Positions 3,244 through 3,615 of a DNA stretch of 56,901 bases are shown here, in pieces. Origin of the DNA: Pseudomonas phage PAKlein3; sequence record PP931173.1; one strand, 5' to 3'. The position numbers were made by a program, and so were the translations under genes. The notes under the pieces were generated by a model, which was given only the letters and a program-made list of their open reading frames with translations, did not search any database and had not been told where the DNA came from. Position 1 is the first letter of the stretch. Every line of letters begins with the position of its first letter.

Positions 3244-3615
3244 GCGCAACCTAAGTCGCCCAGCGGGCTAACCTAAGTCGCCTCGGCTCGAATACGACTC
3301 CTCCGACTCGAGTTACGCTAGTGGCCTTGCTTTTTCTAAAGTCGCCGCAAACCCGCGCTACTGCAAGGCCCAGGGCGGGTCGACTCTAGTTACTCTACTT
3401 TCTTTAGATAGAAAGAGAGATTAGAATATTACTCCTAGGAAGCCCGTTTTGAAGCCTTCTGGGCAAAACGCAAGCGCAAACGGCCAAAAAGCCTAGCGAA
3501 TTGCAAACACCTCAAGTACCTCAAGTAACTCGAGTCGGACGCCTGCAGACCCGCGCCAGCACAGGGCTGCAGCCCGACTTGGGTTGCAAAACGAACCTAA
3601 GTCGCTTCGGAAATG
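3244..3615. repeat. IR-A: ~370-bp repeat-rich non-coding region, inverted copy of 34731-35100 (IR-B)
   Basis: Hand alignment of the reverse complement of 34741-35100 against 3244-3605 gives ~85-95% identity over consecutive 60-bp blocks (3481-3541 near-identical). Contains the 12-mer AACCTAAGTCGC three times (3248, 3270, 3595) and an AT-rich core at 3385-3440. Confidence 0.8.

Follow-up and report, generated by a model that had tools for sequence, protein, structure and literature searches.

Why would a phage genome whose annotated genes all lie on one strand carry two mirror-image copies of one intergenic segment, 31 kb apart? The question is posed by Pseudomonas phage PAKlein3 (PP931173.1), analyzed here as a single window, that is, the whole stretch of 56,901 nucleotides, in which the segment ahead of the helicase gene (copy A) reappears in reverse ahead of the small terminase gene terS (copy B). 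A and B are twin copies of a cis-acting module present in all relatives sampled, and it seems safe, on the sequence evidence, to regard them as twin arrays of sites that a protein would bind around an AT-rich core with dyad symmetry. The reading that we tentatively prefer, as possible rather than probable, is that of twin origin-like modules that combine short repeated sites (iterons) with AT-rich DNA and would be occupied by a phage protein, in the manner of oriL and oriR of phage SPP1. No description of the paired module was found in the literature searched. Paired origins or operators, like AT-rich cores and arrays of iterons, belong to known kinds; new relative to that literature are the occurrence of the pair in all relatives sampled, the change in its orientation among them, the deep conservation of the motif and the evidence that the copies have undergone conversion.

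The mirrored module and its motif arrays

A repeat search of the window recovered inverted arms at 3248-3543 and 34799-35094 that are 82% complementary over 296 nt without gaps (86.8% over 296 nt in a gapped BLAST alignment), the runner-up inverted pair by length having only 36 nt at 72%. From the first to the last 12-mer, the whole element (3248-3608 against 35094-34735; 361 bp) is 78% identical, and homology between A and B stops at the outer 12-mers. The original prediction had described inverted repeats of ~370 bp; the extended inverted similarity between 3.2-3.6 and 34.7-35.1 kb on which it depended is present, but the identity is lower than the 85-95% then given. Its placement of the pair in the two largest non-coding gaps agrees with the annotation of relatives, in which gaps of 512 bp (3160-3671) and 945 bp (34273-35217) hold A and B, respectively, in a genome of 63% GC. 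The two modules are as follows.

3248-3608, plus strand: inverted repeat A (IR-A), the full module ahead of the helicase gene, with the 12-mers as bounds
34735-35094, minus strand: inverted repeat B (IR-B), the same module reversed, ahead of terS, delimited by homology with IR-A

The 12-mer AACYYAAGTCGC has six exact matches and one near match, all within the two regions, against 0.71 expected by chance. Three copies per region in a mirror layout had been reported, and their positions are confirmed: two lie distal to the early genes (3248 and 3270 in A, 35061 and 35083 in B) and one proximal (3594 in A, 34738 in B). Further copies exist beyond these three, the 12-mer belonging to a larger family defined by the asymmetric 11-mer AACYYRAGTCG on both strands, which has nine exact copies genome-wide, every one inside the two modules. 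With up to one mismatch, A holds seven sites (3248+, 3270+, 3304-, 3381-, 3527+, 3575- and 3594+) and B five; at least three clustered copies of a short motif in non-coding DNA are what an iteron origin is expected to show. Motif scanning placed these sites, together with tandem 9-bp units, as listed here.

3248-3259, plus strand: iteron 12-mer AACCTAAGTCGC, first distal copy in A
3270-3281, plus strand: iteron, second distal copy in A
3304-3314, minus strand: iteron AACTCGAGTCG, within arm b (3303-3317)
3381-3391, minus strand: iteron variant AACTAGAGTCG, adjoining the AT-rich core of A
3509-3537, plus strand: three tandem 9-bp units CCTCAAGTA CCTCAAGTA ACTCGAGTC in A, with the iteron at 3527-3537 as their end; overlaps arm b'
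3575-3585, minus strand: iteron AACCCAAGTCG in A
3594-3605, plus strand: iteron, proximal copy in A, at a fixed 11 bp 5' of the -35 hexamer of the helicase promoter
34738-34749, minus strand: iteron in B, proximal to the early genes
34804-34832, minus strand: tandem 9-bp units and an iteron variant (34805-34815) in B
34951-34961, plus strand: iteron variant AACTAGAGTCG, adjoining the core of B
35061-35072, minus strand: iteron, distal in B
35083-35094, minus strand: iteron, distal in B

A miniature transposable element was considered and rejected, the outer 12-mers being direct rather than inverted and the two positions being fixed across two subfamilies.

Between the iterons lie the two AT-richest 50-bp windows of the genome (72% AT in A, 68% in B), so that DNA with the composition of an unwinding element adjoins the motif array in each copy. 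Each core contains a hairpin-like dyad, CTCTACTTTCT-TTAGAT-AGAAAGAGAG, and about 36 bp of it are nearly invariant among the copies of five divergent genomes, including Epa5, which belongs to another genus. The AT-rich core had rightly been assigned to both regions, but the hexamer TAGAAT is found in A only, B reading TAGAGA.

3388-3437, no strand: AT-rich core of A, first in rank for AT content
34906-34955, no strand: AT-rich core of B, second in rank
3460-3500, plus strand: asymmetric conserved block CTGGGCA..GCAAG..CCAAAAAGCCTAGCG, to the right of the core in A, from the alignment

A sigma-54 pattern (-24/-12), looked for by eye in the CTGGGCA..GCAAG block, was discarded since the spacing from GG to GC varies across copies.

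Each module can also pair with itself. Arms b and b' (3303-3317 and 3524-3538) pair in both A and B, and the self-palindrome previously noted in B is real, 34758-34791 matching 34975-35008 over 34 nt at 91%. The pairing of c with c' is confined to B, where an 18-bp segment flanked by CTGCAG is flipped (3543-3572 against 34768-34797), block c being a direct repeat in A; the flip is found in all four divergent Abidjanvirus lineages.

34758-34791, no strand: arm c' of the 34-nt palindrome in B
34975-35008, no strand: arm c of the same palindrome
3549-3566, no strand: segment of 18 bp between CTGCAG sites, with opposite orientations in A and B; it repeats block c directly in A and as an inverted copy in B

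Single-strand folding of both modules is far better than that of shuffled sequences (z = -4.5 and -5.7), the two arm pairs are 85.7% paired across nine B copies as against 27-41% with partners slid, and seven pairs in b/b' and c/c' are altered on both sides, a number equalled or exceeded in 4 of 500 shuffles. Such folding and compensatory change, along with a 34-bp stem in B that would make a plausible target for RNase III, could point to a structured RNA, be it a small RNA or a leader or processing site, read from one strand or from both. This we consider very unlikely. A single nested hairpin is rejected because the arm pairs with support interleave. The flipped segment also leaves A and B with different arms in use, and the two copies would yield complementary rather than identical RNAs on the coding strand. 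No Rfam match was obtained at gathering thresholds or up to E = 1, and covariation contributes little (-1.2 kcal/mol) to the consensus fold. Correction of the palindrome at the DNA level explains the co-variation of the arms equally well as selection for pairing.

Pairing, orientation and exchange among relatives

PAKlein3 is an Ab18/PaMx11-like Abidjanvirus. In the regions searched, it is 95-98% identical to the P. aeruginosa phages phiW8-1, PA_LZ03, Ab18, Ab19, Ab20 and ZC01 and about 75% identical to PaMx11, Lucjan and AIIMS-Plu-RaNi (RaNi), and all of these with a taxonomy line are placed in Abidjanvirus (Mesyanzhinovviridae, Bradleyvirinae). Both copies occur in all nine complete Abidjanvirus genomes checked and in Epa5 (Epaquintavirus), where the same inverted pair covers 155 bp at 86%. 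In the ZC01 paper, these regions are noted as low in GC and non-coding, and the repeat is not mentioned (PMC5418858).

The comparison was extended to IMG/VR contigs through the regions upstream of their helicase and terminase genes. In each of the eight complete contigs from which both regions were obtained, the two have a repeat in common, inverted in two (PaMx11 and Epa5) and direct in six, and the orientation of the pair is therefore free. The six contigs with direct copies are YuA/M6-like, with repeats of 34-213 bp at 84-100% identity, and such regions hold an AT-rich tract, 9-bp units in tandem and arrays of a related motif (GTAACCYAAGCGC, ACTTGACTTAC) that occupy both strands. The tract is a microsatellite that differs by copy and by genome, being (AAG)n, (TATC)n or (TAA)n; it thus keeps its composition and not its sequence, as an unwinding element should. 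The motif core AACCTAAG is found again in both intergenic regions of distant relatives, and a distant contig with an AT-rich genome and a helicase only 42% identical has CAACCTAAGA arrays at both places; pairing and core being present even there, both are old and widespread in these phages. A pattern scan of IMG/VR returned only copies of PaMx11 and Epa5, and a scan of metagenomes gave two Ab18-like contigs (L190 and L191) with normal junctions and three AT-rich chance matches.

Phage YuA itself (Yuavirus) has a shared repeat, the related motif GTAACCYAAGCGC, an AT-rich tract and trapped promoters at the same two genomic positions. On the other hand, its pair is direct, the strongly shared segment is 34 bp long, and direct nucleotide alignment of its regions to those of PAKlein3 gave only scores at the level of noise, with no significant match. 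The YuA pair is mentioned neither among the features of its record nor in the literature searched. A likeness of YuA promoter sequences to the PAKlein3 core and tandem 9-mers was noticed on visual inspection alone and plays no part in the argument.

The two copies have also exchanged sequence. Identity between A and B within a genome is 78% in PAKlein3 and 72-76% in the others, as against 68.5-71% when A of one genome is compared with B of the other for PAKlein3 and PaMx11. Between these two phages, 17 sites are concerted (alike in both copies of one genome and different between genomes) and 3 are crossed; the concerted sites cluster at 3260-3310 and 3499-3517 and include spacer positions outside the motifs. 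This excess and clustering lead us to conclude that partial gene conversion between copies 31 kb apart has been laid over an old duplication, and that homogenization has been limited, since 25 sites still set all A copies apart from all B copies. The CT/TC difference between the 12-mers of A and B, which had been described as concerted within each region, behaves in this way in the Ab18-like clade alone, with two exceptions there, but not in PaMx11, Lucjan or RaNi.

Exchange of this kind, together with the higher identity of A and B within than between genomes, could be taken to mean that recombination is the function of the pair, either because a crossover inverts the 31-kb early module to give genome isomers or because it feeds double-rolling-circle amplification as in the yeast 2-micron plasmid. 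The viability of an SPP1 mutant with an inverted block of replication genes would suit such a reading (PMC6316719). The flanking inverted repeats of an invertible segment are present, but no inversion isomer was found among the assembled sequences of the nine complete Abidjanvirus genomes, Epa5, two partial records and the two metagenome contigs, all of which have identical junctions. Nor was a dedicated recombinase found among the ten proteins scanned against Pfam, where the putative integrase gene (21400-23775) proved to encode a primase-helicase without a match to any recombinase family. Direct repeats, as in YuA-like phages, would produce deletion rather than inversion, and the 25 copy-specific sites have persisted. 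We therefore judge a recombinational function highly improbable.

The inverted copies of Abidjanvirus and Epaquintavirus and the direct copies of YuA-like phages amount to a natural experiment on how much orientation matters, and conversion between copies so far apart is relevant to the way in which similarity between duplicated control regions is maintained in phage genomes.

The window itself ends in a direct terminal repeat of 153 bp (1-153 against 56749-56901, 99% identity), which most probably arises where the ends of a circular assembly overlap; a comparable assembly repeat of 127 bp is described in the Lydia paper. With this overlap counted, the genome length becomes 56,748 bp. Upstream of copy B, the early block is closed by a terminator.

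34300-34340, plus strand: intrinsic terminator ending the early block, invariant in relatives

The stretch at 34230-34340, comprising the final ~40 nt of the last early gene and the terminator hairpin, is almost 100% identical in PAKlein3, Ab18, Lucjan and RaNi, while its surroundings are only about 75% identical in these same genomes, which suggests strong constraint or recent exchange. At about 34340-34420, the GC-rich segment GGCCTGCGGCCTTGGGC with surrounding bases is tandemly duplicated in PAKlein3 relative to Ab18, Lucjan and RaNi, and the spacer of 460 bp from the terminator to IR-B is variable and rich in indels. A coding reading of this spacer and of the repeat was rejected, since indels among copies and orthologues are not multiples of three.

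Promoters and candidate binding proteins

A scan for the sigma-70 consensus found no site, and so no consensus -35/-10 pair, in either copy. Scanning with position weights gave only weak sites inside the repeat, the best on the coding strand being TTTCTT-17-TAGAAT in A; its -10 reads TAGAAT or TAGAGT in all A copies and is disrupted in the Abidjanvirus B copies. The same type of scan revealed a coding-strand promoter-like family, TTGCCT-N17-cAGAAT, at 3617, 5622, 11328, 11439, 23983, 26900, 28951 and 41044, with a variant at 35146 (TTGTCC-17-GAAGAT). The sites at 3617 and 35146 lie between each module and the start codon of helicase or terS, and their hexamers and exact 17-bp spacer length are kept in PaMx11, Lucjan and RaNi, at ~25% divergence, while the spacer sequence varies.

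3399-3427, plus strand: weak promoter-like site TTTCTT-17-TAGAAT, specific to A and putative
3617-3645, plus strand: predicted helicase-proximal promoter TTGCCT-17-CACAAT, a family member outside the repeat
35146-35174, plus strand: terS-proximal promoter-like site TTGTCC-17-GAAGAT, outside the repeat

With the putative promoters of both gene blocks outside the repeat, an "antisense" promoter copy ceases to be a paradox. The remark that ordinary promoters do not explain the pair was a fair one, and the proposal that early promoters were duplicated in opposite orientation is weakly supported.

The family sites are intergenic, and several have a TTTGACAA element 8-20 bp upstream; their layout resembles that of YuA repeats annotated as "putative sigma70 promoter requiring phage-encoded cofactor". 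Two of them lie in a direct repeat of ~60 bp at 83% (26898-26955 against 41042-41099), one copy in the early region and the other in the late region, each with one family promoter and the leader start GTCGGGGCGGTTCCCGA. Two more (11328 and 11439) fall in the promoter region at 11265-11514, which has no iteron array; this is a third low-GC non-coding region, likewise noted in the ZC01 paper (PMC5418858).

The position of these sites bears directly on the main rival to the origin reading, which is purely transcriptional: the modules would be operator arrays for a phage regulator, such as a double helix-turn-helix (HTH) protein, that times the early and late blocks through promoters beside or inside them. 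We find this explanation somewhat less likely than the origin reading, and several points are in its favor. Both copies lie directly 5' of the first gene of each block, and the conserved promoters with 17-bp spacers follow the last iteron by 12 bp in A and 52 bp in B, so that binding sites do stand beside promoter-like sequences (3617-3645 and 35146-35174), whose activity is predicted. The distance from the proximal iteron to the -35 of the helicase promoter is fixed in A, at 11 bp, but is not conserved in B. The YuA record lists sigma-70 promoters verified by promoter trap in both corresponding regions (489-568 and 33014-33160), the -35 (TTAGGT) lying inside a motif copy and the correspondence being by position and motif and not by alignment. 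By ONT-cappable-seq, one sigma-70-like trapped promoter of YuA was confirmed, and four antisense RNAs were reported (PMC10914365). The HTH protein is kept in Epa5 and YuA. Yet five to seven sites spread over 360 bp and a nearly invariant 36-bp AT-rich dyad exceed the needs of known operators, and no sigma-70 consensus site lies within the repeat. Inversion alters every distance from site to promoter, yet both orientations persist in the family, and the variable AT-rich microsatellites of YuA-like copies have no obvious role in an operator. Parallels for such an arrangement are lambda OL/OR and phi29 p4.

Two adjacent genes supply candidates for the protein that would bind the arrays.

21072-21413, plus strand: candidate iteron-binding protein, a 113-aa tandem double-HTH protein
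21400-23775, plus strand: candidate initiator of 791 aa, RepB-type primase and SF3 helicase (DUF5906)

The 791-aa protein matches RepB_primase and DUF5906 in Pfam as well as the helicase part of the phage primase structure 6k9c, which identifies it as a primase fused to an SF3 helicase. Its homologue was noted as a putative integrase in the Ab18 paper (PMC4482731) and in the YuA record, and this prompted suggestions of lysogeny. The double-HTH gene directly precedes it; the product, a "putative repressor", consists of an HTH unit (LLIWRRR...WE) in tandem, twice. Speculatively, an iteron built of two 5-bp half-sites (TAACC-TAAGT here, TAACC-TAAGC in YuA) would suit a monomer with two HTH units. 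The primase-helicase is 57% identical to that of YuA, in an alignment that reaches the C-terminus, the corresponding values being 51% (helicase), 40% (HTH protein) and 32% (TerS); a homologue search with the C-terminus of the primase-helicase gave three matches.

TerS would itself be the binder if the arrays were packaging (pac) sites. Copy B is immediately upstream of terS, and the pac sites of P1 and SPP1 consist of short repeated motifs flanking a central region. Against this, the module is not a single site, its second copy lying 31 kb off before the helicase gene in every relative, and inverted sites would package in opposite directions. TerS is also the least conserved candidate while the motif core is conserved, and the Ab18 reads were reported to map as a circle, free of abnormal peaks (PMC4482731). 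We regard packaging sites as an explanation with very little likelihood.

A twin-origin reading and its precedents

Among the four functions offered in the original prediction, binding arrays fit best and a pair of origins is a serious one, and the one that we prefer. The origin role is favored because many asymmetric sites on both strands surround the most easily unwound DNA, because the AT-rich tracts in relatives keep composition and not sequence, and because orientation is free, a primase-SF3 helicase is encoded and the modules have the potential to fold as single strands; SPP1 oriL/oriR provide the precedent. According to this scheme, a phage-encoded protein, with the primase-helicase and the double-HTH protein as candidates, would occupy both arrays, and the AT-rich dyad-symmetric core would be the easiest place in the genome to unwind. 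Copy A, beside the replication genes, would be the primary origin, and copy B, where the packaging and structural block starts, would serve as a second origin or as a protein-bound fork barrier, as proposed for SPP1 oriL/oriR. The same binding may modulate the promoters that adjoin each module. Since the arrays are two-sided and the promoters nearest the genes fall outside the repeat, it would make little difference which way a module faces, and such neutrality would account for an inverted pair in PAKlein3 and a direct one in YuA-like phages.

Several observations weigh on the other side. The ~36 nearly invariant base pairs of the core across two genera exceed the needs of an unwinding element, and in every relative the copies are placed precisely where the two gene blocks begin, as an element of transcriptional control would be. 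The corresponding YuA regions carry trap-verified sigma-70 promoters, with a -35 overlapping a motif copy, and the fixed distance from iteron to -35 in A looks regulatory. Neither copy holds a consensus site for DnaA or IHF, and the AlphaFold model of the C-terminus of the primase-helicase, with a pLDDT (predicted local distance difference test score) of 54, is too poor to show a DNA-binding fold. The origin and transcriptional readings are not mutually exclusive.

The modules might also form an asymmetric switch cassette, in which orientation is functional and one bound protein has opposite outcomes at the two sites, an idea that we hold improbable. Facing promoter-like units would then give reciprocal control of early and late genes; alternatively, two one-directional origins or polar fork barriers would fix the point where forks meet and trigger concatemer synthesis. 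If this were the case, YuA-like phages with direct copies would run a different program. Members of this family are both used and studied as therapeutic Pseudomonas phages, and neither a mapped origin nor an early-to-late switch was found for them in the literature searched; two precise, conserved targets of 360 bp, an 11-bp motif and two candidate binders make both questions directly testable.

Known systems share parts of this design. Lambda OL and OR are two arrays for one protein that flank a gene block as mirror images and overlap promoters. Their promoters are divergent and each array has three dyad-symmetric sites, whereas PAKlein3 has genes on one strand, five to seven asymmetric sites per array and a long AT-rich core in each. 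Herpes simplex virus (HSV) oriS is an AT-centered origin palindrome flanked by initiator sites in both orientations and present twice, inverted. The HSV inverted repeats are kilobases long and drive inversion of segments, with isomers readily seen, whereas in PAKlein3 the repeat is the module itself and no isomer was seen. Satellite phage P4 has two separate cis-acting repeat arrays on one replicon, ori and crr, which are bound by alpha. A primase-SF3 helicase fusion is encoded in PAKlein3 too, but the primase is of DnaG type in P4 and of RepB type here, and the motifs are unrelated. The alpha protein has a C-terminal winged-helix domain that binds the origin (PMC2777425), for which the C-terminal model of the PAKlein3 protein is too poor to show a counterpart.

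The closest precedent is SPP1, a lytic siphovirus with headful (pac-type) packaging and genes on one strand, which has two distant, similarly organized origins, each composed of repeats and an AT-rich unwinding element, bound by one phage protein and marked by AT-rich islands (PMC6316719, PMC3485210). One of these origins, intergenic and within the late region, has been proposed to stall forks and trigger concatemer synthesis (PMC6316719, PMC3485210). There is no sequence relation between the two phages; oriL is inside the initiator gene and not at a block boundary, and SPP1 relies on the initiator gp38 with a DnaB-type helicase and its loader, as opposed to the primase-SF3 helicase fusion of PAKlein3. 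What the two have in common is the paired, distant regions of repeats and AT-rich DNA in a genome with its genes on one strand, the origin function being putative in PAKlein3.

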